Shown: one piece after another, positions 8,238-50,212 of the stretch
Position numbering within the stretch: position 1 is the stretch's first letter
Layout: each line of letters opens with the position of its first letter
Position numbers and translations under genes: made by a program
Source: a virus
Length of the DNA stretch: 50,705 bases
Virus record (IMG/VR): IMGVR_UViG_3300029876_000011
Direction: 5' to 3' (one strand)
Notes under the pieces: model-generated
Database searches by the model: none
Seen by the model: the letters and a program-made list of their open reading frames with translations, nothing else
What the model was told of the DNA's origin: nothing

Positions 8238-8240
8238 ATT

Positions 8241-29915: not shown

Positions 29916-30057
29916 CTACTTTTTTACTATTTGAAGCATTTTATTTAAACCTTTATAAAATCCTTCTATATCTCCTGAAAGTATTTGACCTTTCATTGTC
30001 TTATATGTATTCTTAGGTATCTTGTATTTAAGTTTCTTTAGTTCTTTGAGTGCTTTA

Positions 30058-31569: not shown

Positions 31570-31741
31570 ATACCCCTCCTTTCAGTATGCAACATTACCA
31601 CTATCTTATATTGCACCTATGTAAGTACTAACTAGCCTAGATATATCAAGACTTTAAGCCCTATTTTTTATCTAAAATAGTTTTTAACTTTTTTAAGGTG
31701 CTTTTTTGGCTCAAAAAATGGAACTCCCCCTGATTGATAAC

Positions 31742-31873: not shown

Positions 31874-31914
31874 TTTAACACCTCCTTTATTTACTATTTG
31901 AAGCATTGAAGCCC

Positions 31915-32109
31915 TTAAAGGACTTCAACTGCTCCAGTTTCTTTGCTGCATTTAATTTCTGTTTTCTTCCCATCAAGTTCAAACCTCCAAGAATAAGTAG
32001 TAGGTGTTTCCTTATCAACATACCAGCCTATAACTTCATCAAACTCTTTATATTTTGATTTGTTATAAACTTTCTTAATTCTACTTACTGCTTGTTTGTT
32101 TGTTAGCAT
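31915..32109 (-). CDS. Hypothetical protein
   Basis: 64 aa; driven by promoter/leader cassette copy A. Confidence 0.4.
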   Translation of the reverse strand: MLTNKQAVSRIKKVYNKSKYKEFDEVIGWYVDKETPTTYSWRFELDGKKTEIKCSKETGAVEVL

Positions 32110-32200
32110 TTTGTATTTCCCCTTTGATGTTTTAGTAGGTTATCTCCTAACCTCTATATATATAATAACATATATGATAATATATATCAATAGTTTTGTT
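32110..32200 (-). promoter_or_regulatory. Promoter/leader cassette family P-I, copy A (TTGATA-N17-TATTAT)
   Basis: -35 at 32185-32190, -10 at 32162-32167; shares the conserved leader ..tatatatagaggttaggagataacctactaaaacatcaaagggg. Confidence 0.5.
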
Positions 32201-32235
32201 TCATTTTTTATCTGTAATTTATTATTTGAAGCATA

Positions 32236-32583
32236 TTACTCTTGACTATCTACAAATCTAGTAAAGGTATTCTTATATCCTCCAATAGCATAGTCTATAT
32301 ATTCACTAGTCTTATTAATCCTTGCTTCTTGAACTTTTTCATTCGCTAATTCAGGATGTTCTTTTTGTACCTTTCTTCTTGCTCTTGTTATACTTTCAAA
32401 TGCTGGTAATTTATATTCTTTATGATTTAACATAACATCATAAAATGGTTGTCTAATTACCACATTTTCATTAATTAACTGATATACTCTATACAATAAG
32501 ACAAAATCATCTGATCTAGTATCTTCAAATCTAGTTAGCACATCTTTAACCATATCCTCCACTTTATATAAATCAGTTTTCAT
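32236..32583 (-). CDS. Hypothetical protein
   Basis: 115 aa. Confidence 0.4.
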   Translation of the reverse strand: MKTDLYKVEDMVKDVLTRFEDTRSDDFVLLYRVYQLINENVVIRQPFYDVMLNHKEYKLPAFESITRARRKVQKEHPELANEKVQEARINKTSEYIDYAIGGYKNTFTRFVDSQE

Positions 32584-32782
32584 TTTTCCCCTCCAATTCT
32601 TTCATTTTTAGTAATATATCTAGATATACTGTTTCTTGAGTTTCGTTAAAAGTATCTACCAAGAACATTACTAACATTTTCCAATTCGTTTCTAATTTAT
32701 TTAACTTTGCCAATTTCTCTGCTGTATATAAACTTAAATATTCACCTTTCATATAATCACCTCTTTTTACTATTTGAAGCAT
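32573..32782 (-). CDS. Hypothetical protein (probable true start at the internal Met; the annotated N-terminus MLQIVK is the conserved motif)
   Basis: The ATGCTTCAAATAGTAAAAAGAGGTGA motif plus ribosome-binding site lies before an internal ATG. Confidence 0.35.
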   Translation of the reverse strand: MLQIVKRGDYMKGEYLSLYTAEKLAKLNKLETNWKMLVMFLVDTFNETQETVYLDILLKMKELEGKNEN

Positions 32783-32787
32783 AATGC

Positions 32788-32979
32788 TTAATCAAATAAA
32801 CTAATTTGTTTTTTAGTAATTTGATTAGCATTAGTACTTTCTATTCTCAATGGTTCAGGTTTCTTTTCTATTTCCTTGGAAATACATTTACTACATAAAA
32901 CTAAACCATTGTGTCCACTACAATAATCCCATTTATTGCATACATCACATTGATCTTTAAATGACTTCATTATTATCAC
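32788..32979 (-). CDS. Small zinc-ribbon protein
   Basis: CDVCNKWDYCSGHNGLVLCSKC. Confidence 0.4.
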   Translation of the reverse strand: MIIMKSFKDQCDVCNKWDYCSGHNGLVLCSKCISKEIEKKPEPLRIESTNANQITKKQISLFD

Positions 32980-33421
32980 TGCTTTTCCTTCCTAATATTT
33001 CATCTGCTTCTTCTTTTGTATAGGCATCATATCCATATTGAGCATTTTGTTGTTTGTTTCTAGTCTTATGTATTTGATTTAATAATATTTTTCTATTTCC
33101 CTCATTACATAGTTTATTTTCATTATCATGGAACACTTTCATTAGTTCTAACTGATTTTTATATATTCTTCTTTCAGTTCTTAACTTATGTAGTTCTTTA
33201 ATGATCCTATATGATTCTGTAACTTTAACAGGCTCTAATTCTATGTAATGTAACCAATAATCTATCTTCTTATCAGTTAATGATTGTAAGGTAAACAACT
33301 TTTCAAAATACTCTTCATTATCTTCTAATAATCTGATTGCATTGCAGATGTTGTCTAACACATCTACTGTACTTGGTTGTTCCATGTATCCCTCCTTATA
33401 TCTTGTATTCCATATTTTCAA
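32957..33421 (-). CDS. Hypothetical protein
   Basis: 154 aa. Confidence 0.4.
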   Translation of the reverse strand: MKIWNTRYKEGYMEQPSTVDVLDNICNAIRLLEDNEEYFEKLFTLQSLTDKKIDYWLHYIELEPVKVTESYRIIKELHKLRTERRIYKNQLELMKVFHDNENKLCNEGNRKILLNQIHKTRNKQQNAQYGYDAYTKEEADEILGRKSSDNNEVI

Positions 33422-33767
33422 ATTGTTCTTTTGTTACTATTGATTTAATATCTTCATTTTTTCTTATTCTTTCAATCCACACACCAGTTCTATTATTAGG
33501 TCTTTTAACTTGTATCTCATATACTTTATTATTACTGCTTAAAATTGCAGTAACAGGATATCTATTAACATAATCTCCTACTTCTAAAATATCAATTATG
33601 TTATAACTGGCTTTAACTACATTTTCTTTTGTATATTCTCCTTGATAGATACTGCCATTATTTTCAGTTAATATAGTTGTTTCAAATACATTTGCAATTT
33701 TATTTATAACAACTATATCTTCAACATCATTTACCAGCCTTACATACATTCCAACTTTTAATTCCAT
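33396..33767 (-). CDS. Hypothetical protein, paralog family 1 (with 45419..45763)
   Basis: Shares M-L-VGMYVR ... NIIDIL-VGDYVN ... SIVTKEQFE with 45419..45763. Confidence 0.45.
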   Translation of the reverse strand: MELKVGMYVRLVNDVEDIVVINKIANVFETTILTENNGSIYQGEYTKENVVKASYNIIDILEVGDYVNRYPVTAILSSNNKVYEIQVKRPNNRTGVWIERIRKNEDIKSIVTKEQFENMEYKI

Positions 33768-33906
33768 TTTTTACACCTCCGTTCATCTTATTTCCTCCTT
33801 ATATATTTTATGCAACATTACCCATATGTTATATTGCACCTAGTAGACATTGAATAAGACTATATATATCAATGCTTTAACTAGTTTTTACTATCTAAAA
33901 TAGTTT

Positions 33907-34155
33907 TTATGATTTTTGACCTATATTTTCTATCTTTTTTCTCATATTTAGATATTCTTTACCAATAGGACTTTCAAAATATTTATTACATAAATCTATT
34001 GCAAAATTGATTGTTGCATTTGCTACATTTTTTATAGGTTCAATAACATCTTCTGGTTCTATGTCGTTTGCAATGCAATAATTAGCAAAATTATGTTTTG
34101 TTTCATCACTCATACCTTTGACTATACTAGCATTTGTAAATTTAATATGTTCCAT
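33907..34155 (-). CDS. Hypothetical protein
   Basis: 82 aa. Confidence 0.4.
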   Translation of the reverse strand: MEHIKFTNASIVKGMSDETKHNFANYCIANDIEPEDVIEPIKNVANATINFAIDLCNKYFESPIGKEYLNMRKKIENIGQKS

Positions 34156-34167
34156 CTATTTCACCTC

Positions 34168-34476
34168 CTAACATACATCAATAATTCCATCTGGATTATC
34201 TTCACAACAATTTCTCATTTCTTTAATTGCTTCTAATAAATCATAATAAGTCCCCCAACCATTTTCAGGATTTAGTTTTTCATACTCCTCTTGATTCACT
34301 ATTAAATCTTCAATGGCTTTTTGTAAAATTGGTAATGCTTCTTTACAACTCATACCATCTAATGTTTTGAAACCTCCAGGAATACATTTGTAGTACATTT
34401 TTGAAAGATTATAAGTAATATTCCTATCAAATATCTCAACTTCTCTTGTTGCTCTTACTCCTATATCTAAACTCAT
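34168..34476 (-). CDS. Hypothetical protein
   Basis: 102 aa. Confidence 0.4.
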   Translation of the reverse strand: MSLDIGVRATREVEIFDRNITYNLSKMYYKCIPGGFKTLDGMSCKEALPILQKAIEDLIVNQEEYEKLNPENGWGTYYDLLEAIKEMRNCCEDNPDGIIDVC

Positions 34477-35054
34477 CTACATTCACTCTCCTCTGATCTA
34501 ATATAATTATCATAATCTACCCATAATTTATCTATTAAAGGTTGCATATATTTAGGTATTTCTTGTCTATGTTTTAATACATAACTTGCATATGGTTTAA
34601 TTGCTAAACCTCTTTCTAAGTATGCTTCTTTATTTCTAAAATCAATTACTATTGTTTTTAGTTCATCATGTTGATAATTAGGTATCAATCCAAACCTTCC
34701 AACTCTCAATAGTCCCTTTACTTTCTCATAATTTGAATATGACTTATAAGGTGATAAATCAAGACATTCCCAATCAAAGAAATAATAATATTCAATACTT
34801 TCATCTATACTACTTCTTCTATTTTCTAGTGTTTTTTTATAAAACTTTGTAACAGCAAATTCATTAAGAAATTGCTGTAAAAATGGTGGAAAATAAGTTT
34901 GTAACATATCAACAAAACTATCGTTATTAGTCATAAAATACCTATTATAATTGACAACAACTTTTTGCTTATCACCATCACATATAAACTCTAAATGTTC
35001 ATTATCTGCTATGTTTTGAAGAGTTATAGAATTATAATCAAATTCTCTTATCAT
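34473..35054 (-). CDS. Hypothetical protein
   Basis: 193 aa. Confidence 0.4.
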   Translation of the reverse strand: MIREFDYNSITLQNIADNEHLEFICDGDKQKVVVNYNRYFMTNNDSFVDMLQTYFPPFLQQFLNEFAVTKFYKKTLENRRSSIDESIEYYYFFDWECLDLSPYKSYSNYEKVKGLLRVGRFGLIPNYQHDELKTIVIDFRNKEAYLERGLAIKPYASYVLKHRQEIPKYMQPLIDKLWVDYDNYIRSEESECR

Positions 35055-35223
35055 TTTTCCTCCATATACCCATTTCTACAAGTTCTTTTCGTTCTACTTC
35101 TTCTTCTGTTAGTTCTATTGGTTTATTTATTTTCTTTAATTCTGCTAATATTTCTTTTTGAATAGTTACTAATTTATGAATATCCTCATAAAATCTTCTT
35201 TCGTATTGATTCATAACTTTCAA
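35038..35223 (-). CDS. Hypothetical protein
   Basis: 61 aa; overlapping neighbours. Confidence 0.35.
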   Translation of the reverse strand: MKVMNQYERRFYEDIHKLVTIQKEILAELKKINKPIELTEEEVERKELVEMGIWRKNDKRI

Positions 35224-35710
35224 CTCCTTTCATTTTGCTTTTAACATTTATCCACACTTTTTTTCCTAAAATGTTATTGATTTCTCCAATTGTATAACCT
35301 TTTAAAAATAATTTTATACATTTAAGTTCTTGTTGGTTTAAGTGTGCCTTTTCTATTAATTCATTAAGATATATTTTTGTGTCTATCTCATGTTGTGGAT
35401 TATAAGATTTGTTATAAATGACTATCGGATTTTTAAAATCAAGTTTATCAATAATATCTTCTTCATAAATTTCATGCCTTACCTTTGATGAATTAAGATA
35501 ATTGTATTTCCAAAATTGTTTATCAGCATTGTATAGTTTTTCAAATGTATAATTCTCTTTATGTTTAACTTGATATCTGTTCCATAATACTAATAATTTG
35601 TGTATGTAATAATCATATAAATCATCATATTCAACATATTTTATTGTTTTGATATCTACCTTGCATAGGATTTTTACCTTGTCATAGTATTTTATTAATT
35701 CTTCCATCAT
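35186..35710 (-). CDS. Hypothetical protein with C-terminal sigma-region-4/LuxR-like helix-turn-helix
   Basis: LNQQELKCIKLFLKGYTIGEINNILGKK. Confidence 0.4.
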   Translation of the reverse strand: MMEELIKYYDKVKILCKVDIKTIKYVEYDDLYDYYIHKLLVLWNRYQVKHKENYTFEKLYNADKQFWKYNYLNSSKVRHEIYEEDIIDKLDFKNPIVIYNKSYNPQHEIDTKIYLNELIEKAHLNQQELKCIKLFLKGYTIGEINNILGKKVWINVKSKMKGVESYESIRKKIL

Positions 35711-36153
35711 ACAAACATTTTACCAATATGATACTTTTTAAAATCTTGATATTTCTTTAATAGTTCTTCTTCTTTTTTTATATCTTCATCAATTTTGTCA
35801 AATATGTTTGCTATATGCTTCTGTGTTTTAATATCATTATGTATTACTAATTCCATATGATTAAATACATCTGGTTGTATGTTTATCCCTGTTTGATATT
35901 TAGAAAGAAATACAGGCAGTTGATCACTTATAAGATAATATAAATATTTGCTATTAATTAATTTGTTGTTTTTAACAATTAGCACTATATATTGGCTTTC
36001 TACATTAGTATCTTGATTTAAGTAAAATATTTGTCCCTTACTAGCAGATACTTGAATAATGATATTTCCTTCACTATAAACTTTATTTTTCTTTGCTCTT
36101 TCAATATCAACTAAATCTAATAATTTCACTTCTTTATAATTTCTTAAATCCAT
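35707..36153 (-). CDS. hsdS: Type I restriction-modification specificity subunit, half-size (single target-recognition domain)
   Basis: 148 aa; HsdS-like TRD plus conserved C-terminal helix (HIANIFDKIDEDIKKEEELLKKYQDFKKY); start 4 nt after the hsdM stop. Confidence 0.65.
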   Translation of the reverse strand: MDLRNYKEVKLLDLVDIERAKKNKVYSEGNIIIQVSASKGQIFYLNQDTNVESQYIVLIVKNNKLINSKYLYYLISDQLPVFLSKYQTGINIQPDVFNHMELVIHNDIKTQKHIANIFDKIDEDIKKEEELLKKYQDFKKYHIGKMFV

Positions 36154-36157
36154 ATAA

Positions 36158-37450
36158 TCACCCTAACCACTCCATCATAGGTTTTATTGCTTTTGAATAA
36201 TATTCTTTTTCTTCTGGTGTAGTTCCCTCTAACTGTTCAAGCATTCCTTTTAATTGTTTTTCACATTCTTTAGTTTCTTTTTCAATTTTAATAATATCCT
36301 GTACTACTTCCTTTAAATCTGGTAATGGTTCGGTTTCAAACGTATCAACATATCTTGGAATATTTAAGTTATAATCATTTTTAACTACTTCTTCAAAACT
36401 TGCTAAATGTGAATATTTTTCTATTTCTTTTCTATTTTTGTATGTTTCTATTATTTTGTTTATTTGTTCATCATTCATATCATTTTGTTTTGCTTGCTTT
36501 ATGCAGTTTTTAGAACTATCTATAAACAAAATATTTTTATCTTGTTTATTTTTGTTCAATATTAATATGAATGTAGGAATACCTGTATTCAAAAACATTT
36601 TTTCAGGAAGGCCAATAATGCTATCAATTAAATTATTTTCTATTAATTGTTTTCTTATTTCTCCCTCTGCTGATCCTCTGAACAATACACCATGAGGCAA
36701 TATCATAAATGCTTTACCGTTATCACTCAATCTATATAGAATATCTAATACAAATGCAAAATCGGCTTTGCTTTTTGGTGCTAACTCATATCCTTCAAAC
36801 CTTTTATCACATTTTGGCTGCCATTCTATTGAATATGGAGGATTAGAGATGATGGTGTTATATTTAATATCTTGTATATTTTCACTTTTTCCGATTACAC
36901 TGAAATCATTACCTTTTTTCAGTGTGAAAGTATTTATTATTTCATTTTTCAATACATCTTTTTGAATTATTAAGGCATCTGTATTTCTAATTGATAAGTT
37001 AAACAACAATATAGGTATTGACCTAGAAGATAATTCTTCACATTGAAAAGTTGCATTCTTATTTTCATTGTAAGTAAACAATGTTAAAGATCCTGTTCCA
37101 CTGCATACATCTAATACACTATCTTGTTTATCTTGTAACCTTGCTATTATTTTACATATACTATCAGGAGTATAATCTTGCTTTAATCCTTTTCTATCAC
37201 TATGTTCTTCTTGAAAATAATCTCTAAAAAAATCGCTTGATAAATCAATGTCGTACTTCATAAAATTATTAAATAGTTTGTTTTTTTCTTCTTCATTTAA
37301 TAATAAAGTCATTAACTTATCAGGTAATTCAAAACTCTCTTTTATTCCTATAAGTTCATTTATTACTTTGCTTGTTATTTTTTTCTTTTTTTCATCATTA
37401 AATAATGACATTTGTCCATTCATATTTCCTCCTTTTACTATTTGAAGCAT
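36158..37450 (-). CDS. hsdM: Type I-like N6-adenine DNA methyltransferase (HsdM); likely true start at ATGAATGGACAAATG (~37422), since the annotated MLQIVKGG N-terminus is the conserved motif plus ribosome-binding site
   Basis: Motif I VLDVCSGTGSL, motif IV NPPYS; C-terminal HsdM-like region. Confidence 0.8.
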   Translation of the reverse strand: MLQIVKGGNMNGQMSLFNDEKKKKITSKVINELIGIKESFELPDKLMTLLLNEEEKNKLFNNFMKYDIDLSSDFFRDYFQEEHSDRKGLKQDYTPDSICKIIARLQDKQDSVLDVCSGTGSLTLFTYNENKNATFQCEELSSRSIPILLFNLSIRNTDALIIQKDVLKNEIINTFTLKKGNDFSVIGKSENIQDIKYNTIISNPPYSIEWQPKCDKRFEGYELAPKSKADFAFVLDILYRLSDNGKAFMILPHGVLFRGSAEGEIRKQLIENNLIDSIIGLPEKMFLNTGIPTFILILNKNKQDKNILFIDSSKNCIKQAKQNDMNDEQINKIIETYKNRKEIEKYSHLASFEEVVKNDYNLNIPRYVDTFETEPLPDLKEVVQDIIKIEKETKECEKQLKGMLEQLEGTTPEEKEYYSKAIKPMMEWLG

Positions 37451-38319
37451 TAAAACTTCACATTTTCTAATTTTTTTCGTTTTTGCTCTCCTGATGTTTT
37501 AGTATATATCCTTGTTGTCTTTAAATCATTATGTCCTAACAAATCTGCTAAATCTAGCACATTCTCTGGATAACTTTCTAAAAATACCTGTGCAAATAAA
37601 TGTCTAAAGTTATGAGGATGTACCTTTTCTTTATTAATTCTAGCAATTCCTGCAATCTTCTTCATTTGTCTCCAGATGGTTGATACTGCTGGCATTTTAC
37701 CTTTACACTTTGGATCATTTGATAGAAATATGTAACCGCTATCTATTCCTTTTGATTTATAGTATTTTTTTAATTCTCTTGATAGGTCTTGCCTTATTAC
37801 TATTTCTCTATCTTTTCCTTTGTTATATACCTTTATATTTTTTCTAGGTGTTTTTTCTAGGTTTTCAACTGTGAAGTACTTTAATTCTCCAATTCTACAA
37901 CCTGTCATACCTAAAACTTTAATTATGTAATATAATTGCTCGTTGCCTGTTTTATTAGCAATTCTTAATAATCTCTTAAAGTCTGCTATGGTTAATGATT
38001 CTTCATTGCTACTCTGCTCTTGCATTTTATATTTTTTTATTGTTAAGTCATTTAATCCTAACCATCTTAAATACTTATTTAATGATACTATCCATATATT
38101 CATACTCTTTGGACTTTCTGTTATGGTTCTTATATAGTCTTTATAATCCATAGTAGTATCTTTTGTTATTGACTTCTCATCATCAGGAAGCCAATTAATG
38201 AATTTCATTACATTGTTTTTATATTGCTTTAATGTATTTACTTCTTTTTCTTCATATCTTAATTCAGTTATCCATTCATCAACTTTTGATAGTAGTTCTT
38301 CTTTGTTCATAGTTATCAC
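37450..38319 (-). CDS. Tyrosine recombinase (XerC/D-sized; no arm-binding domain)
   Basis: C-terminal catalytic signature HNFRHLFAQ ... LGHNDLKTTRIYTKTS (R..H-x-x-R..Y); stop overlaps the hsdM-motif ATG. Confidence 0.75.
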   Translation of the reverse strand: MITMNKEELLSKVDEWITELRYEEKEVNTLKQYKNNVMKFINWLPDDEKSITKDTTMDYKDYIRTITESPKSMNIWIVSLNKYLRWLGLNDLTIKKYKMQEQSSNEESLTIADFKRLLRIANKTGNEQLYYIIKVLGMTGCRIGELKYFTVENLEKTPRKNIKVYNKGKDREIVIRQDLSRELKKYYKSKGIDSGYIFLSNDPKCKGKMPAVSTIWRQMKKIAGIARINKEKVHPHNFRHLFAQVFLESYPENVLDLADLLGHNDLKTTRIYTKTSGEQKRKKLENVKF

Positions 38320-38658
38320 CTAGAAAGGTAAGTCCTGATCCGTTATTTGATAATCTGTAAATGTATCTTGTTCTTTTGTTTCAACTTGTTGTTGCTGCTG
38401 TCTCTGTACATTTTCTACAACATCAAATTCAGATATAAATATGTATTCATACTTCTTACCATTTACATCATCACATTTTAACCAGGCATTTTTAATTTTA
38501 ATATCTGTTTTATTTTCTAATTCAACACCCTTTTTAAATCTACAATTTTTATACCAATTAACATAATTTCCATCTTGTTTTTTATCACTTAGACTTAATG
38601 AATAATATCCATTTTCATTTTTAAATACTTTTACTGAATAATCACTTGTTATATTCAT
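38320..38658 (-). CDS. SSB-like OB-fold protein (Gln-rich linker, acidic tail ending DLPF)
   Basis: C-terminus QQQQQVETKEQDTFTDYQITDQDLPF resembles the SSB D-(I/L)-P-F tail; stop abuts the recombinase start. Confidence 0.45.
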   Translation of the reverse strand: MNITSDYSVKVFKNENGYYSLSLSDKKQDGNYVNWYKNCRFKKGVELENKTDIKIKNAWLKCDDVNGKKYEYIFISEFDVVENVQRQQQQQVETKEQDTFTDYQITDQDLPF

Positions 38659-38799
38659 TTACTATTGCTCCTTTCTAATATTACCTTTTGCTTATCTCCA
38701 TCACATATAAAATTAAATGTTTCACAATGCAAGAAAGATAATCTTTCTAATTCTATGAGTGGCAATTTTGCATAATCAATTTCAATCATTTCCACTCTC

Positions 38800-39105
38800 C
38801 TATTCTTCTGGCTTTTTATCTAATTCTTCTAATTGCTTATTTATTGCTTGTAATTCTTTAAATGTAATAGGAACTGAGTGACCATAATGATCTCGTTTCT
38901 CTACTTCGCACTTTTCTACTTGCTTGCTAATTAGAAAATCAATCATAAAATAATCATCCCAAATTGAATTTTCAGGTATGCTTTTTATATATATAATATC
39001 CCATTCATTTGCAGAACGTTTTTTATATCCTAACTCTTCAAACATTTCTTCTACACTTATTTCTTTCTCTCTATTAACTATTTTTGTTGTTGCCATATTT
39101 ATCAC
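38800..39105 (-). CDS. Hypothetical protein, paralog family 2 (with 47436..47645)
   Basis: Shares EEMFEELGYK and ELQAINKQLEEL with 47436..47645. Confidence 0.4.
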   Translation of the reverse strand: MINMATTKIVNREKEISVEEMFEELGYKKRSANEWDIIYIKSIPENSIWDDYFMIDFLISKQVEKCEVEKRDHYGHSVPITFKELQAINKQLEELDKKPEE

Positions 39106-39202
39106 TCTCCTTTTTTTCCATATATTGGTTGCAACATTACCTATATATTATATTGCACTATATAAATGTTGATTTTTCCTTTATTTCATAAGGCATTGAG
39201 CC

Positions 39203-39364
39203 TTATTTTTTATGTAAAATAGTTTTTATGATTTTTGGTAGTAGTTTTTCTTTATAAAACACATAATGGCAGTCTGTTGCTCTAGTTATATATTTTACTT
39301 TTATGTCTTTTCTACTAATAAATTTTTCTAAATCAACTATCCATTCAAAGTGGTCTACTTTCAT
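39203..39364 (-). CDS. Small ORF (53 aa), not in the ORF track; C-terminus encoded by the repeated element-1
   Basis: Hand translation MKVDHFEWIVDLEKFISRKD...PKIIKTILHKK, verified codon by codon. Confidence 0.3.
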   Translation of the reverse strand: MKVDHFEWIVDLEKFISRKDIKVKYITRATDCHYVFYKEKLLPKIIKTILHKK

Positions 39365-39383
39365 TTTTTTCACTCTCCTTTCT

Positions 39384-39560
39384 CTACTTATTTTTATGTA
39401 AAATATTTTTTATGATTTTTGAACCAGTATCAAACATATTTTTTATAAAATCTGATATGGTATAATCTAGTAATTCATCTAGTATTTGAAATAAACTAAC
39501 CGCTAAACATATTAAATATAATGTTGCTAATACAAATAACATAAATATTATAAAATCCAT
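39384..39560 (-). CDS. Small membrane ORF (58 aa), not in the ORF track; C-terminus encoded by element-1
   Basis: MDFIIFMLFVLATLYLICLAVSLFQILDELL...SKIIKNILHKNK; ATG abuts the stop of 39561..39788. Confidence 0.3.
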   Translation of the reverse strand: MDFIIFMLFVLATLYLICLAVSLFQILDELLDYTISDFIKNMFDTGSKIIKNILHKNK

Positions 39561-39788
39561 CTATTCACTCTCCTTGTTAATAATTTTCATAACTTCATCT
39601 ATTACCTTTTCAGTTAATTTATCTGCTTGTTCATCAATTAGTTTATTTAGATCATTTAATTCTTCTTCTTTAATAATGCCTTTTCTAATTAATATAATAA
39701 CTAATGATATAAATTGTGCATTTAGTTTAATGGATTCTTGTCTTAAATCATTATTTAATACCTCTCGTTTAATTTCTTCTCTTGTCAT
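39561..39788 (-). CDS. Hypothetical protein
   Basis: 75 aa helical. Confidence 0.4.
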   Translation of the reverse strand: MTREEIKREVLNNDLRQESIKLNAQFISLVIILIRKGIIKEEELNDLNKLIDEQADKLTEKVIDEVMKIINKESE

Positions 39789-39989
39789 CTATTCACCTCT
39801 TTAAATAAATTTATTATTTGAAAATTTCTGTCTATATTTAAACAAAAATTTTGGATGGTACTTATTCAGTAAATGCAACAATAATTTTTCAATAATACTT
39901 TTTAGGTATCTGAAAAACCATATTGTATGATTTACCACTTTGTAATATTGCATTACATTCACCTTTCGTATTTTTTAATCACATTATAT

Positions 39990-40151
39990 TTAGTTTTCTT
40001 TATTGGAATAAAAGTTTGTATAATCTTCAATGGCTTTTATTTTGTTGTTAAGTCTCTCGATTTCATAATCTTTGAATTTTATCTCATTTTTATATTTGTC
40101 TAGGAGATAACCTAATTCATCAATTACTTCTAAGATGTTTTTTTCATTCAT
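39990..40151 (-). CDS. Small ORF (53 aa), not in the ORF track
   Basis: MNEKNILEVIDELGYLLDKYKNEIKFKDYEIERLNNKIKAIEDYTNFYSNKEN; downstream of cro. Confidence 0.3.
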   Translation of the reverse strand: MNEKNILEVIDELGYLLDKYKNEIKFKDYEIERLNNKIKAIEDYTNFYSNKEN

Positions 40152-40247
40152 TACTTTGTCCTCCATAGAAAATTTTCTTGCAATACTAATAATACAAACT
40201 TGTGTTCTCTATTTCAATATTTCAGTTAATTCTACATATTAGAGTTA

Positions 40248-40469
40248 TTATTCCTTTTTCCACAACAGCCACATATCTGAATAAGGACCTATTAGTTCAT
40301 CTTCAAACACCTCATAGAACCTTTCCATAAGTCCAAATGATGGATTAGATTTACCACTCTCAATATCTGAATAATGCTGCCTAGTTATGTCTAATTGTTC
40401 AGCAAAGTATTTAATACTTCTTTTGCCTTTTTCTCTTGTTCTCCTAAACTTTATTAGAGTAAACCTCAT
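40248..40469 (-). CDS. cro: Cro-like XRE-family HTH protein
   Basis: 73 aa with YFAEQLDITRQHYSDIESGKSNPS helix-turn-helix; divergent from the cI-like gene. Confidence 0.6.
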   Translation of the reverse strand: MRFTLIKFRRTREKGKRSIKYFAEQLDITRQHYSDIESGKSNPSFGLMERFYEVFEDELIGPYSDMWLLWKKE

Positions 40470-40558
40470 ATTTATTTATCACCTCCTAACAATGTTTCTT
40501 ATTGAAAGGTAATTTTACTTTTTGAAGCATACAATTCACCTCACTACCATCTATTACC

Positions 40559-40587
40559 ATTTTACTATATTTAAATAATTTTGTCAA
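40559..40587 (-). promoter_or_regulatory. Consensus promoter TTGACA-N17-TAAAAT for the cro-side early transcript
   Basis: Minus strand reads TTGACAaaattatttaaatatagTAAAATgg; 90 nt upstream of the cro ATG. Two copies of the 17-nt motif lie in the switch region. Confidence 0.55.
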
Positions 40588-40671
40588 TAATAAATTGTCA
40601 TTTTCAAACTTAAAGTTTTACTTTTTGAATACTTTAGTGTATATTTATATTTGATAAATTAGAAAGGAAGT

Positions 40672-41046
40672 GTGGAAATGACTAAAATACAAAAGTCATT
40701 AGATACTAAGGAAATTGGAGAAAAGGTTAGGCAATTAAGGAAAGCAAGATCAATGAGGCAAGATGAACTTGGAGAAGTTTTAGGAGGTTTAAGTAGAGGA
40801 CAAGTAAGTAATTTAGAAACAGGGAGAAGAAATTTAAATATTCATCAAATAAAAATATTAGCAGACTTTTTTGGAGTATCTTTAGAAACATTAGGATTAA
40901 AAACAGAAGAAGTAGAAGTTAATGATTTATTGGCTCGTGCAAAATTAATTTTTGAAAATGATACTGTACCTTTTGAAGAAAAACAAGAATTGAGTGAAGA
41001 AATTATGAAAATGTATATCATAGCAAAGGAGCAAATAAAAAAATAG
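40672..41046 (+). CDS. cI: cI-like XRE-family repressor (HTH only, no S24 peptidase domain)
   Basis: IGEKVRQLRKARSMRQDELGEVLGGLSRGQVSNLETGRR helix-turn-helix; plus strand, upstream of int. Confidence 0.65.
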   Translation: MEMTKIQKSLDTKEIGEKVRQLRKARSMRQDELGEVLGGLSRGQVSNLETGRRNLNIHQIKILADFFGVSLETLGLKTEEVEVNDLLARAKLIFENDTVPFEEKQELSEEIMKMYIIAKEQIKK

Positions 41047-41496
41047 AAGTATCTCTATTTGATACTTCAAGGAGGTGATATTTTATGCTTTAGAGCCATA
41101 TATTAGTTTTATCTCTTTTTAATTTTTTTATTTCTTCTTCTGTATAGAAGCAGTTTTCATTATCTTTAAATAAACGATTGCAACCATCATATAATCTTTT
41201 TTGTAGGCTTTTTTCTTATAACAGTATGTTTCATAATATCACCTCCTAATCAACTATAACAAAATTGATTAAGAATATATTATTAAGATACTTCTTTAAC
41301 TTTAATTTTAATTTTTAAATTATTTTGGTTGGCATATAATTCATACAATAACTCATAGAATTTAGTAATATTCACATTATCAATCCTTTCTTATCACATT
41401 GTGAAAGATAAATGCTTCAAATAGTATATTTAATAACTACATTATGAAACAAAATATAATATTATTACAACTAGAATTTAAAGGGGATATTGGAAA

Positions 41497-42855
41497 ATGA
41501 AAGCAAAAAGAATAGCAGGATATGTTAGGGTTTCACACGATGAACAAAAGAAATATGGCTATTCAGTTCAAGCACAAATAGATAGGATTATAAGGTATGC
41601 AGAAGAAAATAAATGTCAATTAGTAGAAATATATGTTGATGAGGGTTTTACTGCTACAAAAATGAAAAGACCTGATTTATTAAGAATGTTAAACGATTTA
41701 GATAAATTTGATGTACTTGTATTTACTCGTTTGGATCGTTTCTCTAGGAATGTATTACAAGCAAACAAAATGGTTGAGATTATGGAAGAATACAATGTAG
41801 CCATTAAATCAATTGAAGAAGAAGATATTGATACAACTACTGCTGATGGTAAGTTCAACTTCAATTTAAGGGTATCACTCGCCCAAAGGGAAGCAGAAAA
41901 GACAAGCGAACGGATTAAATCAATATTTGAATTTAAGATTAAACAAGGGCAACCAGTAAGTGGTAACCAACCTTATGGTTATAAAATCGTAACCAAAGAC
42001 AATAAGAAAACAATCGTTAAAGATCCTGAACTTATACCTATTGTAAATGATATATTTGAATATTTTGCTAAACATCATACTATAAGAGGCACTATGACAT
42101 ATATTAATGGTAAATACGACATAAGCAAAAATTACAATTGTATTTATAGAATGCTAACAAGTACTGAATACTATGGACTATATGAAGGTAACCCTAATTA
42201 CTACCCTCCATACATCACAAAAGAAGAATTTGAAAAGAACGTACAAAGAAGAAAAGCAAATGTTAAAGGAAGAAAAGGAACTAATGTTTATCTATTCACC
42301 TCCCTAATGAAATGCCCTTTTTGTGGGTTTAAAATGGTTGGTAAGTTCACCAAAAGAAAAAACAAAAATGGGACAATTAGAGAATACTGGGGTTACATTT
42401 GTAGCAACAACCAAAGAAATAAAGCATGTGCTAGTGGTAAGGTTATTAATGAAAATGTAATTTTAGACTTCCTTTTAAAAAATGTTGAAAAACTCGCTCA
42501 AAAACATATTGCAGAAGTTATGGAAGTTAAACCAGCAGATAAAACCGATTTACCTCAAAATCGGATTAATGAAATTTTAGAGGAAATTGACAACTTAAAT
42601 TATATGTTCCAAAAGAAAAGAATTGACATTAAAAAGTATGATAAAGAATATGAGGCACTTGAAAAAGAACTAGCAAACTTACAAAAAGAAACACCAAAGG
42701 AAACTGATATTACTATATTAGAAGAATTTTTAAAGAGTGATTGGAAAGATGTTTATAACTCTTTAGACAAAGAAAATCAAAGGGCTTTATGGAGAAATTT
42801 GATAAAGGAAATTAAGTTTAATAAAGATTTTAAAATAGATGTAGATTTCTTATAA
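41497..42855 (+). CDS. int: Large serine recombinase (integrase)
   Basis: N-terminal resolvase catalytic domain with RIAGYVRVSHDEQ (Ser nucleophile); recombinase domain; zinc ribbon CPFCGF...C..C; C-terminal coiled-coil. Confidence 0.85.
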   Translation: MKAKRIAGYVRVSHDEQKKYGYSVQAQIDRIIRYAEENKCQLVEIYVDEGFTATKMKRPDLLRMLNDLDKFDVLVFTRLDRFSRNVLQANKMVEIMEEYNVAIKSIEEEDIDTTTADGKFNFNLRVSLAQREAEKTSERIKSIFEFKIKQGQPVSGNQPYGYKIVTKDNKKTIVKDPELIPIVNDIFEYFAKHHTIRGTMTYINGKYDISKNYNCIYRMLTSTEYYGLYEGNPNYYPPYITKEEFEKNVQRRKANVKGRKGTNVYLFTSLMKCPFCGFKMVGKFTKRKNKNGTIREYWGYICSNNQRNKACASGKVINENVILDFLLKNVEKLAQKHIAEVMEVKPADKTDLPQNRINEILEEIDNLNYMFQKKRIDIKKYDKEYEALEKELANLQKETPKETDITILEEFLKSDWKDVYNSLDKENQRALWRNLIKEIKFNKDFKIDVDFL

Positions 42856-42860
42856 TATTC

Positions 42861-42908
42861 GTGTTCATAACTACATATAGCCAAGTGGTTAAAGTTAGAT
42901 ATGAACAT
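42861..42908. other. Candidate attP: imperfect inverted repeat gtgttcata ... tatgaacat around ccaagtggttaa
   Basis: 8 of 9 bp complementary arms, 30 bp apart, immediately 3' of the serine integrase gene; the size fits serine-integrase attP sites. Confidence 0.25.
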
Positions 42909-42911
42909 AAA

Positions 42912-42948
42912 AGAAACCCTTGATAATCCTATGTTATCAGGGGTTTTC
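42912..42948 (+). terminator. Rho-independent terminator after int
   Basis: 13-bp stem aaacccttgataa / ttatcaggggttt (1 mismatch) followed by TTTT. Confidence 0.55.
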
Positions 42949-43109
42949 TAATGTACCATACTATAAAATTTTATAATTAATTCCATTACTTCTTTTTCAT
43001 TGTATCTATCTTGTATCATTTCTAACACCTCATGATATTCAATTTCTTCTTTCACTTTTTCATTATAAATATCTACTGCTTTGCTAAGTTCTGCATACCA
43101 TTTAAACAT
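42948..43109 (-). CDS. Small ORF (53 aa), not in the ORF track; intact member of paralog family 3
   Basis: MFKWYAELSKAVDIYNEKVKEEIEYHEVLEMIQDRYNEKEVMELIIKFYSMVH, verified by hand. Confidence 0.35.
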   Translation of the reverse strand: MFKWYAELSKAVDIYNEKVKEEIEYHEVLEMIQDRYNEKEVMELIIKFYSMVH

Positions 43110-43160
43110 AAAATACCTCCAATATAAATTAAATTTTATTATATTAGAAATATTATTTTA

Positions 43161-43189
43161 AATCAAAGAAAAAGAACCCTTAAAGGGTT
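43161..43189 (-). terminator. Hairpin gaaccctt-a-aagggttc followed by TTTTTCTTTGAT on the minus strand
   Basis: Perfect 8-bp stem with a T-run on the minus strand. Confidence 0.45.
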
Positions 43190-43353
43190 CAGGCTTCTTT
43201 AAATATTTCTATGATTGTACTTAACATTTCAACTGGATCTTCTGTGTCGTTTATTTCATCAATCACTTCCCAGTATTCAAGATGTTGTTCTTCTTTTCTA
43301 TTTGAGTTGTATTTATCAATAGCCATATTTAAAATTTCTGCATATAATATCAT
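43188..43353 (-). pseudogene. Frameshifted copy of paralog family 3 (1-nt insertion)
   Basis: MILYAEILNMAY then stop; the next frame continues IDKYNSNRKEEQHLEYWEVIDEINDTEDPVEMLSTIIEIFKEA. The intact paralog reads AVDIYNEKVKEE at the equivalent position; the extra base is in plus-strand caataagcc (~43318-43321). Confidence 0.35.
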
Positions 43354-43415
43354 TTTCAATTACTCCCTTAAAATTTATTATTTGAAGCATAAGAGGGAAA
43401 TTAATCCCTCTCTTT

Positions 43416-43673
43416 TTATTTTACTATTACTAGTTTTGCTCTAAATCTTGCAAATGTACTTTCTATAATTTCATATTCAAATTCATCATCTGCTACTACA
43501 CGCATATTTGATATTAATACTGCATTTATATCCCTTTCTGACAATCTTGTTATTGCCTGTGACATATTGTTTACTGTTTCTGCTGTATCAACTCCATGTA
43601 ACATTGCATAATTTAAACACTTTGCAATTTGATCTTCAACATCTTTACCTTTTGCTAAAATAAGAAGTTTCAT
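43416..43673 (-). CDS. Hypothetical protein
   Basis: 85 aa; driven by cassette copy B. Confidence 0.4.
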   Translation of the reverse strand: MKLLILAKGKDVEDQIAKCLNYAMLHGVDTAETVNNMSQAITRLSERDINAVLISNMRVVADDEFEYEIIESTFARFRAKLVIVK

Positions 43674-43689
43674 TTTTTGTTTTCCCCTT

Positions 43690-43762
43690 TGATGTTTTAG
43701 TAGGTTATTTCTTAACCTCTATATATATAATAACATATATAATAATACATATCAATAGATTT
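43690..43762 (-). promoter_or_regulatory. Promoter/leader cassette family P-I, copy B (TTGATA-N17-TATTAT, leader hairpin aggttaagaaataacct, RBS AAAGGGG)
   Basis: -35 at 43750-43755, -10 at 43727-43732; the leader is near-identical to copies at 32110-32200 and 44045-44114. Confidence 0.5.
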
Positions 43763-43824
43763 GCTTCTAATTTATTATTTAGTTTATTATTTGAAGCATA
43801 AGAGGGAGATTAATCCCTCTCGTT

Positions 43825-44034
43825 TTATTTTCTTATGATGTTGTATTTCTTATATTCATTAAAAAAATCTGCTTTTTTTAATCTATCAATCTTTACTACT
43901 TTAAATTCATCTTTGTTAAATACTTCATGAGTTGTATCTCCAATTTGTTCTTTCATTTTATTACTTAATGTTGAACTAAATATCACTCCTCTTTGTTTTT
44001 GATCCTTTGTTAATTTGCGGTAGATGTTCTTCAT
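43825..44034 (-). CDS. Hypothetical basic protein
   Basis: 69 aa; driven by cassette copy C. Confidence 0.4.
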   Translation of the reverse strand: MKNIYRKLTKDQKQRGVIFSSTLSNKMKEQIGDTTHEVFNKDEFKVVKIDRLKKADFFNEYKKYNIIRK

Positions 44035-44044
44035 TTTGTTTTCC

Positions 44045-44114
44045 CCTTTGATGTTTTAGTAGGTTATCTCTTAACCTCTATATATATAATAACATATATA
44101 TTTACACACATCAA
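44045..44114 (-). promoter_or_regulatory. Promoter/leader cassette family P-I, copy C (TTGATG-N17-TATTAT)
   Basis: -35 at 44109-44114, -10 at 44086-44091; same conserved leader. Confidence 0.5.
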
Positions 44115-44141
44115 ACAAAATGCTTCTATTTGAATACTTTT

Positions 44142-44357
44142 TTAAATTATAAATATTTTATCATTATCCATTGTTTCAATTGATCCGATCATTTCTAGTT
44201 CTTCTAACCATCGTGTGAAGAAATATTCTTCCTCACTATTTTCAATTCCTAGTAATCTTTTTAATTGGATAATGTCAGTAGTATAACCACCTTGTAACAT
44301 AGCAACTAATTCTAATAATTGAGTTTTAATTTTATTTTTAAGTTTTTCATTTGTCAT
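44142..44357 (-). CDS. Hypothetical protein
   Basis: 71 aa. Confidence 0.4.
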   Translation of the reverse strand: MTNEKLKNKIKTQLLELVAMLQGGYTTDIIQLKRLLGIENSEEEYFFTRWLEELEMIGSIETMDNDKIFII

Positions 44358-44373
44358 TTTTTATTCTTCCTTT

Positions 44374-44601
44374 CTATATTCCAATTCCTAATAATATATC
44401 TTCTGCATCATTTAATATTGATATTTTCTTTTCAATATATTTTACTTTATCTTTATATTCATTTAATGTTATTTCAGCACCTGTATAATTTTTATCTTGC
44501 TCTTTAAACTCTTCGATATCTTTTTTAATATCTTCTATTATTGATTTCATTGCTCCTAATTCTTGATTTAATTCTTTTAATTTTAATTCTATTTCTTTCA
44601 T
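44374..44601 (-). CDS. Hypothetical coiled-coil protein
   Basis: 75 aa. Confidence 0.4.
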   Translation of the reverse strand: MKEIELKLKELNQELGAMKSIIEDIKKDIEEFKEQDKNYTGAEITLNEYKDKVKYIEKKISILNDAEDILLGIGI

Positions 44602-44632
44602 TTTAATCTCTCCTTTTCTTAATTACACATAT

Positions 44633-44661
44633 ATTATAGCATATATTATAATATATATCAA
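44633..44661 (-). promoter_or_regulatory. Promoter family P-II, copy 1 (TTGATA-N17-TATAAT)
   Basis: Minus strand reads atgtaaattattaCTTGATAtatattataatatatgcTATAATat; near-identical copy at 50116-50144. Confidence 0.5.
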
Positions 44662-44689
44662 GTAATAATTTACATTTTTCTGACATTTT

Positions 44690-44720
44690 AACAAAATAAA
44701 AAAGGACTATATTAGTCCTC
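44690..44720 (-). terminator. Hairpin aggacta-tat-tagtcct followed by TTTTTTATTTT on the minus strand, after the hicB-like gene
   Basis: Perfect 7-bp stem with a T-run on the minus strand. Confidence 0.45.
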
Positions 44721-45149
44721 TTCCTCTTTGATATCCAATGTTTCCATTAATGCTTTTTGTAAAACTGCTGATACATTAACTCCACTTTCAATGGCTTTTT
44801 GATTTAAATATTTAGGTAAAGTTACTGCTTTTGTAATTGATTTATATTTATCCTTTTCTCTAAACCACTTCATATTTACATCAATATAAATTAGTTTTTG
44901 GTTATCCTTTAGTTTGATTTCTTTAGGATCGCTAGGCTCTTTAATTTCTCTTTCATCAGTTTCTAACTCTAAATAATGTAATCCTAATGCTTCTTTTCCT
45001 TTTTCAATAGTATCTTGTATGGACTTACCTCCAGTATAACAACCTTCTATATCAGGAAAATAAGCATTATATAACTCTTTTTCTGAATGTTTTTCAATAA
45101 CCATAGGATAACAAATAAAGTTTTTAGTCATGTTTTCCCTCCTTAACAA
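44712..45149 (-). CDS. hicB: HicB-family antitoxin-like protein (HicB fold plus C-terminal ribbon-helix-helix-like region); probable true start at MTKNFICYPMV
   Basis: NFICYPMVIEKHSEKELYNAYFPDIEGCYTGGKSIQDTIEKGKEAL matches the HicB/UPF0150 pattern; the upstream ATG lies inside an AAGGAGGG ribosome-binding site. Confidence 0.55.
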   Translation of the reverse strand: MLRRENMTKNFICYPMVIEKHSEKELYNAYFPDIEGCYTGGKSIQDTIEKGKEALGLHYLELETDEREIKEPSDPKEIKLKDNQKLIYIDVNMKWFREKDKYKSITKAVTLPKYLNQKAIESGVNVSAVLQKALMETLDIKEEED

Positions 45150-45154
45150 TATAT

Positions 45155-45182
45155 ATTATAACACATATTATATTATATTCAA
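45155..45182 (-). promoter_or_regulatory. Promoter TTGAAT-N16-TATAAT upstream of the hicB-like gene
   Basis: Minus strand reads TTGAATataatataatatgtgtTATAATatatattgttaaggaggg. Confidence 0.4.
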
Positions 45183-49952: not shown

Positions 49953-50084
49953 TTAGTTCTCACTCAATTTTCTAATTATGTTGTCTGCCATTATGAACTC
50001 TTCATATTTGCCAGTTTCTTTTGTAAGAAATCTTGTTAATAATGTTATTATCAAATTAATTTCTTCTTTAGTTAATTTTTCCAT
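49953..50084 (-). CDS. Small ORF (43 aa), not in the ORF track, downstream of promoter P-II copy 2
   Basis: MEKLTKEEINLIITLLTRFLTKETGKYEEFIMADNIIRKLSEN; AAGGAAAGGAG site. Confidence 0.3.
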   Translation of the reverse strand: MEKLTKEEINLIITLLTRFLTKETGKYEEFIMADNIIRKLSEN

Positions 50085-50115
50085 TATTTATTCTCCTTTC
50101 CTTAACTACAATATA

Positions 50116-50144
50116 AGTATACCATATATTATAATATATGTCAA
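50116..50144 (-). promoter_or_regulatory. Promoter family P-II, copy 2 (TTGACA-N17-TATACT)
   Basis: Minus strand reads atgtaaattactaCTTGACAtatattataatatatggTATACTtat. Confidence 0.5.
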
Positions 50145-50185
50145 GTAGTAATTTACATTTTTTTGAATTTTTTTAAAATAATAAA

Positions 50186-50212
50186 AAAGACTAGTATTTA
50201 CTAGCCTTTATG
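50186..50212 (-). terminator. Hairpin (gactagta / tactagcc) followed by TTTTTTATTATTTT on the minus strand, after the BhlA/UviB-like gene
   Basis: 7 of 8 bp stem with a T-run. Confidence 0.45.

Follow-up and report, generated by a model that had tools for sequence, protein, structure and literature searches.

The gut-phage genome IMGVR_UViG_3300029876_000011 (50,705 nucleotides, analysed over its whole length and called the window here) contains three near-identical cassettes on its minus strand, each combining a promoter with a short leader that begins in a hairpin and each standing before a different small gene, and comparison of the window with related sequences shows that it is at such cassettes, of ~100 bp, that related phages have gained, lost or replaced modules. 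Our confidence is high for the anatomy of the cassettes and for the modular exchange, moderate for the hairpin acting as RNA rather than as a DNA operator, and lower for a stabilising function of the leader, which draws on analogy with other systems. The reading that we favour, and consider probable, is that these are portable expression cassettes similar to the promoter-early stem-loop (PeSL) cassettes of T4-type phages and to morons, in which a 5' stem-loop and a strong ribosome-binding site (RBS) would form a stabilising or insulating leader.

Three near-identical cassettes had been proposed in an initial annotation of this DNA, and this was borne out by a 44-nt core (TATATATAGAGGTTARGARATAACCTACTAAAACATCAAAGGGG) that occurs on the minus strand at 32119-32162, 43684-43727 and 44043-44086 with no mismatches, given two degenerate loop positions. 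The core had no match in 100 dinucleotide-preserving shuffles, even at ≤3 mismatches, and this control rules out a low-complexity, AT-rich artefact, the outcome that the annotation had named as refuting its proposal. A repeat search delimited the family at 127 nt (32109-32235, 43674-43800 and 44033-44159), with the second and third copies 87% and 70% identical to the first, and in the alignment of the three cassettes the stretch from the -16 region through the Shine-Dalgarno (SD) sequence is invariant except for the 5-nt loop of the hairpin. The common layout is a -35 box, a 17-nt spacer ending in TATGT, the -10 box TATTAT, 5 nt, the hairpin, 8 nt, the SD AAGGGG, 8-10 nt and the ATG. All three predicted promoters are sigma-A-type and near-consensus, with TG before the -10 box and a TATG -16 element (TRTG type); the promoter pattern previously described, TTGATA-N17-TATTAT, is seen in cassettes 1 and 2, and cassette 3 has TTGATG as its -35 box. 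The features of the cassettes and their genes are as follows (open reading frame, ORF; amino acids, aa).

32162..32190, minus strand: promoter of cassette 1, TTGATA-17-TATTAT (-35 at 32190-32185, -10 at 32167-32162)
32133..32156, minus strand: hairpin of cassette 1, loop GGAGA, starting 5 nt past the -10 box, at about +1
32107..32124, minus strand: SD AAGGGG and start codon of cassette 1 (GGGG at 32119-32122, start codon at 32109-32107)
31915..32109, minus strand: 64-aa ORFan behind cassette 1, no Pfam or PHROG match
43727..43755, minus strand: promoter of cassette 2, TTGATA-17-TATTAT with TG
43698..43721, minus strand: hairpin of cassette 2, loop AGAAA
43416..43673, minus strand: 85-aa ORFan behind cassette 2, no Pfam or PHROG match
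44086..44114, minus strand: promoter of cassette 3, TTGATG-17-TATTAT with TG
44057..44080, minus strand: hairpin of cassette 3, loop AGAGA
43825..44034, minus strand: 69-aa ORFan behind cassette 3, no Pfam or PHROG match

Cassettes 2 and 3, direct repeats at a distance of 359 bp, have the accessory-gene block on one side and the integrase on the other; cassette 1 is located in the early/replication region. Sigma-70-like hexamer pairs are overall unenriched in this AT-rich DNA (123 observed versus 149 expected). TG-extended promoter-like sites between 30.7 and 50.7 kb number only six, all on the gene strand and all before genes: the three cassettes and the sites at 44661..44633, 50144..50116 and 45182..45155.

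The leader hairpin spans 24 nt (UAGAGGUUA-N5-UAACCU-A-CUA) and has 9 bp and one bulged A; the shorter version first described, aggtta-NNNNN-taacct, is thus present in all three cassettes but covers only part of the structure. Within the window the hairpins fold at -6.7 to -7.6 kcal/mol and are both the minimum-free-energy and the centroid structure in every leader tested, with the SD 8 nt 3' of the hairpin in all three cassettes and a leader of 46-48 nt to the ATG. Searches for known RNA families returned no match at gathering score for the whole window (Rfam 15), chance-level matches (E>1) for 43300-44800 at relaxed thresholds, and no tRNA or tmRNA in an accompanying scan; a literature search for the stem sequences gave nothing relevant. 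Among specific candidates, mimicry of a clustered regularly interspaced short palindromic repeat (CRISPR) or Cas13 direct repeat by the hairpin plus ACUAAAAC was dropped because the tail is unconserved in other lineages, a lambda boxB/N-type site was ruled out by loops that differ even inside one genome, and CsrA-type GGA loops were ruled out as unconserved.

Close and more distant relatives were recovered by exact-pattern scans and protein look-ups, and they carry the cassettes and their genes in several arrangements. The clearest case is L001, where the upstream flank, promoter and loop of cassette 3 are joined to the start-codon region of cassette 2 and the 85-aa gene, and where the DNA corresponding to window positions 44033-43781 (the 69-aa gene, its 3' hairpin and a boundary motif) is missing. 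This chimera places a crossover inside a 34-nt stretch that is identical between cassettes 2 and 3. L003 has ~4 kb of different upstream DNA with its junction at the cassette, and in L005/L027 both cassettes are present, with uncompensated changes in the cassette-2 hairpin, which no longer folds. Ahead of 69-91% identical homologues of the 85-aa gene, four relatives (L032 and L035-37) have a GC hairpin and a 17-nt motif running straight into the SD without a promoter, and L033 has the motif followed by a TTGATA-17-TATAAT promoter with a hairpin-less leader; in L033 and L036 a complete cassette stands before a different gene, of 155 aa. The cassette, promoter-only and promoter-less states of the 85-aa gene, together with the other exchanges, indicate that promoter, hairpin and gene are separable, recombining modules. 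The idea of portable promoter modules put forward in the initial annotation therefore gains support from the same cassette before different genes, the same gene in three promoter states and the L001 deletion. L032, a more distant relative, also encodes (6394-7002) a 202-aa protein with Sigma70_r4 and RNA_pol_A_CTD Pfam matches, a protein that has no homologue in the window.

A gain/loss junction inside a cassette could also suggest that the bulged hairpin is a folded-DNA recombination site, similar to integron attC, at which a phage recombinase captures gene cassettes; the hairpin does have an extrahelical base, and the window encodes a tyrosine recombinase (37450-38319) besides the serine integrase. 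However, the junction lies in the 34-nt identical stretch, so that homologous exchange suffices, and the hairpin is just 24 nt long, is without attC-like R boxes and is tied to a -10 box and an SD, which points to transcription or translation. The hairpin-bearing loci of other phages, described below, also have no recombinase in common, and we consider a recombination site of this kind extremely unlikely.

Scanning for UAGAGGUUA-N5-UAACCUACUA returned matches in L011, L014 (a contig of a Clostridia metagenome-assembled genome, MAG), L017/L020, L021, L023 and L028, contigs that have almost no proteins in common with the window, and further protein look-ups added hairpin-bearing L038-L042 and L050. 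In every real instance the -10 box precedes the hairpin by 5-6 nt, the SD comes 5-13 nt behind the stem and 43-49 nt separate the hairpin start from the ATG, and the promoter type, the loop, the remaining leader and the gene vary. In 22 instances the first nucleotide of the hairpin lies 5-6 nt past the -10 box, a spacing that would set +1 on the A of UAG if the start site is read from promoter geometry. The most elaborate arrangement is that of L017 (Ga0326513_10000727, positions 433-8886), whose relatives include a 98-kb contig: here and in L038-L041, tandem arrays hold at least 7 cassettes of ~110 nt spaced ~400 nt apart, each preceding a 58-84-aa ORFan, with a GAGTATAAT -10 box, no obvious -35 box, TATCA boxes that recur and one or other of two versions of the same 5' hairpin. 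Other pattern matches (cyanobacterial and marine) were chance-like and away from promoters. Leader queries against 50,697 phage records gave chance matches only, at the sensitivity of blastn, and two candidates, Lactobacillus EV3 and Staphylococcus PG-2021_90, were inspected and dismissed. The hairpin is essentially absent from 185,579 species genomes, where the one real match is a phage-like MAG contig. The hairpin is part of a wider and apparently undescribed leader motif of uncultivated Clostridia-type phages.

The natural variants of the hairpin indicate how it is constrained. They include a bulge-less form (GAGGUU-AGGAAAG-AACCUC), forms with AGCCUC (a U·G pair) or AACCUU (a G·U pair), loops longer or shorter by 1 nt, and GAGGU-N8-ACCUC; AGGUUA...CAACCU in L035 has an A·C mismatch and AGGUUG...CAACCU in L014 a G-C pair, and these two look like an intermediate and a compensated form. 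All variants but the L005 copy still fold (-4.3 to -8.3 kcal/mol). L031, a seemingly doubly compensated variant, was left out, as its hairpin and promoter are wrongly spaced. With 20 instances as its basis, a covariance model gave 53 matches in 304 kb of collected sequence, only three of them in the window. In the model-fitted alignment 85.6% of cells pair, versus 24-49% when the 3' partner is slid, and covariation was 0.054 versus 0.032 in shuffles, a value reached in 9 of 500; this support leans towards the model because the alignment was fitted to it. Given that unrelated phages carry the hairpin at the same place and that its variation is RNA-compatible, the shared leader-RNA function raised in the initial annotation is plausible.

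The same variants bear on whether AGGTTA-N5-TAACCT could instead be a DNA operator at +1, through which a dimeric repressor would co-regulate the three promoters. Three promoters have this perfect 6-bp palindrome at their start site, where operators are commonly found, and its three copies in the window are all at cassettes. Yet the cI/cro switch has no copy of it, no helix-turn-helix (HTH) protein is encoded in the cassette units, and the distance to the SD and ATG is fixed, which would be needless for a DNA operator. Half-site spacing varies by ±1 bp among natural variants, the U·G and G·U changes keep RNA pairing and break DNA symmetry, and the outer stem is asymmetric with its bulged A; together with the fixed RBS distance, these lead us to prefer an RNA hairpin over a repressor operator, which we regard as highly improbable.

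A simpler account would be that the repeats are products of recent duplication or gene conversion of a good promoter region, with an incidental hairpin and cassettes that are merely promoters. The 70-87% identity of the copies over 127 nt and their location in a mosaic accessory region are consistent with this, as are the disrupted hairpin tolerated in one relative and a sister promoter family that is hairpin-less. We nevertheless judge it improbable, as the same hairpin stands at the same position in unrelated phages with other promoters and genes, its variants are pairing-preserving, and the distance to the ATG is constant though the intervening sequence differs.

For the favoured reading, that of portable expression cassettes with a protective leader, we propose the following course of events. 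Transcription would start at the A of UAGAGG, the seventh or eighth nucleotide after the -10 box, which puts the beginning of the stem-loop at the predicted 5' end or no more than one nucleotide from it, and the mRNA would then have essentially no single-stranded 5' end. In Firmicutes, where mRNAs decay in a 5'-end-dependent way (RppH, RNase J1, RNase Y), such a 5'-terminal stem-loop with a strong RBS nearby could protect a short monocistronic message, and a fixed structured leader could keep the RBS unpaired whatever ORF lies behind it. Any captured gene would gain high, context-independent expression, and the ~100 bp of cassette homology would supply exchange sites.

Several points weigh against this proposal. 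The start site was inferred from promoter geometry alone, and the covariation support is modest, with few independent changes in a model-fitted alignment. If any stable 5' hairpin sufficed, the near-invariant 5' arm (UAGAGGUU) would be left unexplained; some of this invariance reflects ascertainment, the stem having been fixed in the searches, and the remainder could be due to a specific binder or to a constraint acting on the SD-like sequence that is transcribed first. The hairpin is also not indispensable, since in L005/L027 the cassette-2 hairpin no longer folds, and the second promoter family of the window and the L033 promoter are hairpin-less. Homologous recombination between the repeats could moreover be a by-product and not a selected role.

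The invariance of the 5' arm is at the centre of a rival account, in which the hairpin is a sequence-specific RNA element bound by a host or phage protein or, through the SD-like GAGG of its 5' arm, by the 30S subunit, controlling translation, decay or antitermination of a small accessory-gene regulon. Besides the 5' arm, the core GGUU/AACC is near-invariant despite differing promoters, loops, leaders and genes, the position relative to the SD is fixed (5-13 nt), purine-rich loops (GGAAA, GGAGA, AGAGA) recur, and the 5' arm is SD-like (GAGG) and the 3' arm anti-SD-like. Much of the invariance, however, is what search patterns with a fixed stem would return, and the loops differ freely among the three copies of one genome. 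A protein common to the hairpin-bearing loci, which would be a possible hairpin binder, was not found among the loci compared, and near-absence from the species genomes places the hairpin outside any host regulon. We therefore think this account unlikely, though it deserves more weight than the operator. Similarly tentative is a broader proposal: the 24-nt hairpin (UAGAGGUUA-loop-UAACCUACUA, with its GAGGUU/AACCUC variant) might be an undescribed cis-acting RNA motif of unrelated gut and rumen Clostridia phages, recognised sequence-specifically by the translation or RNA-decay machinery or by another factor and marking small accessory genes, some perhaps with anti-defence roles, as a mobile 'regulon'; with a co-oriented 17-nt boundary motif it might form a cassette-exchange system analogous to PeSLs or integron cassettes. 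We offer this proposal as a speculative one that is doubtful as a whole.

Among known systems, the PeSL cassettes of T4-type phages (Arbiol et al. 2010, PMC2839356; Comeau et al. 2014, PMC4122927) are a close parallel. PeSL cassettes lie on either side of ORFans, which are deleted or inserted when the cassettes recombine, and the ORF192 of RB49, which lies between two PeSLs, is replaced in phi1 by one chimeric PeSL (PMC2839356), as the 69-aa gene of the window is in L001. Both systems consist of a conserved intergenic cassette of ~100 bp that runs from a stop codon through AT-rich sequence, a sigma-70-type promoter and a stem-loop to the SD and ATG, both repeat in plastic, ORFan-rich regions, and in both crossovers fall between the -10 box and the ATG; a stem-loop downstream of the -10 box is one of five PeSL layouts (PMC2839356). 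The window thus has the apparent strong promoter consensus within a repeat, the integral stem-loop, and the position flanking ORFans with indel junctions in the cassette. Excised mini-circles, formed during infection, are a further trait of PeSL cassettes. The differences are that PeSLs belong to hyperplastic regions of lytic T4-like myoviruses, and the window to a temperate siphovirus-like Firmicute phage, and that PeSL stem-loops are G/C-rich terminators or attenuators variably placed around the promoter, whereas the stem-loop of the window is A/U-rich, leader-like and always at the predicted +1, with separate GC hairpins closing the modules. Given the other phage type and sequences unrelated to those of PeSLs, the window cassettes are a PeSL analogue and not a member.

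Morons of temperate phages (Juhala et al. 2000; the concept is discussed in PMC2839356) share with the window cassettes a single accessory gene with its own promoter and 3' hairpin, a place near the integrase/att end and a patchy distribution among relatives. The suggestion of moron transcription units, made in the initial annotation, fits this anatomy: each unit appears to have its own promoter, one ORFan and its own 3' GC hairpin, and two of the three adjoin the integrase. Classical morons differ in having unrelated flanking signals and are thought to move by illegitimate recombination, whereas the promoter-leader of the window is a conserved repeat that supplies homology, and cassette 1 is not at a prophage end. 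Repeats common to the switch region and the cassettes were looked for in the window and none were found; since cassettes 2 and 3 also adjoin the integrase block, they may be expressed in the lysogen, as morons are.

The leader itself has parallels in Firmicute and Bacillus mRNAs, where an occluded 5' end and a strong SD stabilise the message without translation (the aprE, ermC and cryIIIA leaders, PMC3997798); the SP82 polypurine stabiliser and the cryIIIA STAB-SD are also among the 5' stabilisers reviewed there. Common to these and the cassettes are a short leader, a stem-loop (at the extreme 5' end in the stabilisers, and at the predicted one in the cassettes) with a strong SD nearby, and a purine-rich, SD-like 5' segment, and the aprE-type proximity of a strong RBS to the stem-loop is seen in all instances, with the SD 5-13 nt after the hairpin. 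The sequences are dissimilar, and the known stabilisers belong to single genes and not to a repeat element of unrelated phages.

The units driven by the cassettes are closed at their 3' ends by GC hairpins, which lie directly 3' of all three cassette genes with imperfect U-tracts on the sense strand, and a 17-nt motif often accompanies them.

31908..31926, minus strand: GC hairpin GAAGUCC-UUUAA-GGGCUUC, with one sense-strand U·G pair, containing the stop codon of the 64-aa gene; a 17-nt motif copy follows directly (31890-31906)
43783..43820, minus strand: GC hairpin AGAGGGA-N6-TCCCTCT (43801-43820) and 17-nt motif copy (43783-43799), ending the 69-aa module and forming the upstream bound of cassette 2 (repeat family D19)
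43374..43411, minus strand: second hairpin-plus-motif unit (hairpin 43392-43411, motif 43374-43390), ending the 85-aa module (D19)

The own promoter, the single ORFan and the 3' GC hairpin make each cassette unit self-contained and moron-like, and the modules of cassettes 1 and 2 have the 17-nt motif on both sides. The earlier statement that two cassettes are preceded by a GC hairpin is correct for cassette 2 (43801-43820); the hairpin at 43392-43411 instead follows the cassette-2 gene and precedes a gene without a cassette, a 56-aa gene reached directly through an SD. On the plus strand, the hairpins at 43174-43190, 43392-43411 and 43801-43820 score as intrinsic terminators with clean T-tracts after them; in this direction they are antisense to the cassette genes and come after the integrase gene, and if bidirectional they might shield the accessory genes from int read-through. 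Among the cassette products, the 85-aa protein has homologues 69-99% identical in relatives, always beside the serine integrase. It has a predicted beta-alpha-beta pattern, and its collinear resemblance to the integrase resolvase domain, whose catalytic serine is missing from it, is weak and non-significant (E=13). It had no sequence match in the PDB, Foldseek found nothing, and its AlphaFold model is of low confidence (pLDDT 59.8).

The 17-nt motif is asymmetric (ATGCTTCAAATAGTAAA) and has 17 copies at ≤3 mismatches versus 0.95 expected; 16 are on the minus strand, and the lone plus-strand copy (41412-41428) lies upstream of the plus-strand integrase gene, so that all copies are co-oriented with local genes. 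Copies other than those of the hairpin units include the following.

32218-32234, minus strand: copy ATGCTTCAAATAATAAA, 27 nt upstream of the cassette 1 -35 box, 1 mismatch
25448-25464, 29923-29939, 32766-32782 and 37434-37450, minus strand: further copies
40617-40633: copy with 4 mismatches, additional to the 17
44122-44138, minus strand: degenerate motif-like AGTATTCAAATAGAAGC upstream of cassette 3, 6 mismatches to the consensus

Each cassette had been said to be preceded by the motif, and this applies to cassettes 1 and 2 (1 mismatch each, the cassette-2 copy being that at 43783-43799) but not to cassette 3, which has the degenerate AGTATTCAAATAGAAGC. The motif often directly follows a GC hairpin, whose stem covaries between relatives; 6-7 copies end 0-3 nt before an SD, and others lie ~27 nt before a sigma-A promoter or inside ORFs. 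It is confined to the relatives of the window phage and is absent from the unrelated hairpin-bearing contigs. Within the switch, two copies bracket a P_R-like promoter (40587..40559), as they do in L033 and in L035, whose CI is only 60% identical, and the likely CI operators there are TTGTCAA-type repeats unlike the motif. Promoters for a T7-like single-subunit RNA polymerase (RNAP) were rejected as an explanation of the motif, as there is no large RNAP gene and the sole ORF of >1000 aa is the tape measure protein.

By analogy, the motif (and not the cassette) resembles the stoperators of Cluster A mycobacteriophages (PMC9283540), which the immunity repressor binds, or the start-associated sequences (SAS) of Cluster K (PMC3203893), which always stand directly ahead of start codons. 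All of these are short and asymmetric, have ~15-25 copies co-oriented with transcription, and occur in promoter regions, in short intergenic gaps or immediately upstream of the RBS or start codon; the mycobacteriophage elements differ in sequence and host phylum, and some copies of the 17-nt motif are intra-ORF. One such copy, ATGCTTCAAATAGTGAA (24942-24958), falls within the endolysin ORF (24468-25433), where it separates the amidase domain from the C-terminal repeats, and the portal and tape-measure ORFs have copies in their 3' parts (12799-12815 and 3860-3876, respectively). A motif variant, AGTATTCAAATAGTAAA, occurs on the minus strand at 7591-7625 and 10715-10749, both times preceded by ...caccaagtgcataatt; a 208-aa gene of the tail region, ending at 7611, and the major head protein gene, ending at 10735, have the same last codons (..TPSA*) and the same downstream boundary.

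The second promoter family of two copies reported in the initial annotation was likewise found, with 75% identity between 44590-44703 and 50073-50186 (D9), TG-extended promoter sites and an intrinsic terminator preceding each copy.

44633..44724, minus strand: copy A, terminator 44698-44724 and promoter TTGATA-17-TATAAT (44661-44633), driving the 75-aa gene 44374-44601
50116..50209, minus strand: copy B, terminator 50186-50209 and promoter TTGACA-17-TATACT (50144-50116), driving the 43-aa gene 49953-50084

Copy A has a spacer of the type found in the cassettes and a short leader. Directly behind a second-family promoter/leader, L001, L005 and L027 have an extra 75-aa gene (MKEKMLEQKGKW...; L001 5513-5740, corresponding to window ~44601), and its junction at the start codon is another gene-boundary indel. 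Intergenic repeats of ~118 nt (D3/D7) occur on the minus strand at 31578-31695, 33801-33918, 39120-39237 and 39378-39422; common to them are TCAAAAATCATAAAAACTATTTTAGATA, a hairpin of the GGGCTTAAAGCC type and, ~10 nt ahead of the SD, a second inverted repeat that is conserved in the leader (GTGCAATAT...ATGTTGCAT), and they look like another promoter/leader cassette family, of the early region.

The contig is circularly assembled: bases 1-99 equal 50607-50705, and this exact 99-nt terminal direct repeat indicates a circular or terminally redundant assembly of a complete genome of ~50.6 kb. Its G+C content is ~27% and nearly all genes are on the minus strand. PHROG matches were obtained for terminase, portal, major head, tape measure, tail and amidase-endolysin genes, as well as for a DnaC-like loader, ParB-methyltransferase fusions and the tyrosine recombinase.

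40248-40469, opposite the repressor: Cro-like HTH protein
40678-41046, plus strand: XRE-type repressor (CI), lysogeny block
41497-42855, plus strand: large serine integrase, lysogeny block

The serine integrase, the CI/Cro pair and the structural-gene matches point to a temperate siphovirus-like phage. Its nearest terminases are those of an uncultured human-faecal phage (54% identity) and of Butyrivibrio phages (48%), similarities that suggest a Clostridia-type host (a low-GC Firmicute), and megablast found no cultured phage with DNA-level similarity to the window. Other repeats in the genome are collagen-like 9-nt periodic repeats (22254-22846, repeat family D1) in a 602-aa ORF of the tail-fibre region and a 27-nt perfect tandem repeat in 3-4 copies (17475-17606, D4).

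No part of a phage genome moves faster than its accessory genes, among them anti-defence genes, morons and ORFans, and how these travel and acquire expression signals is well documented mainly for T4-type phages (PeSLs) and lambdoid morons. The locus described here is a clean natural example in a temperate Firmicute phage, comprising presence/absence, promoter-only and promoter-less states and a chimeric cassette at a deletion junction, and it points to conserved promoter-leader repeats as a general means of modular exchange. If the hairpin is a stabiliser or insulator, it would provide a compact, portable 5' untranslated region part for expression in Clostridia, and could serve as a sequence tag for highly expressed small phage genes in metagenomes.

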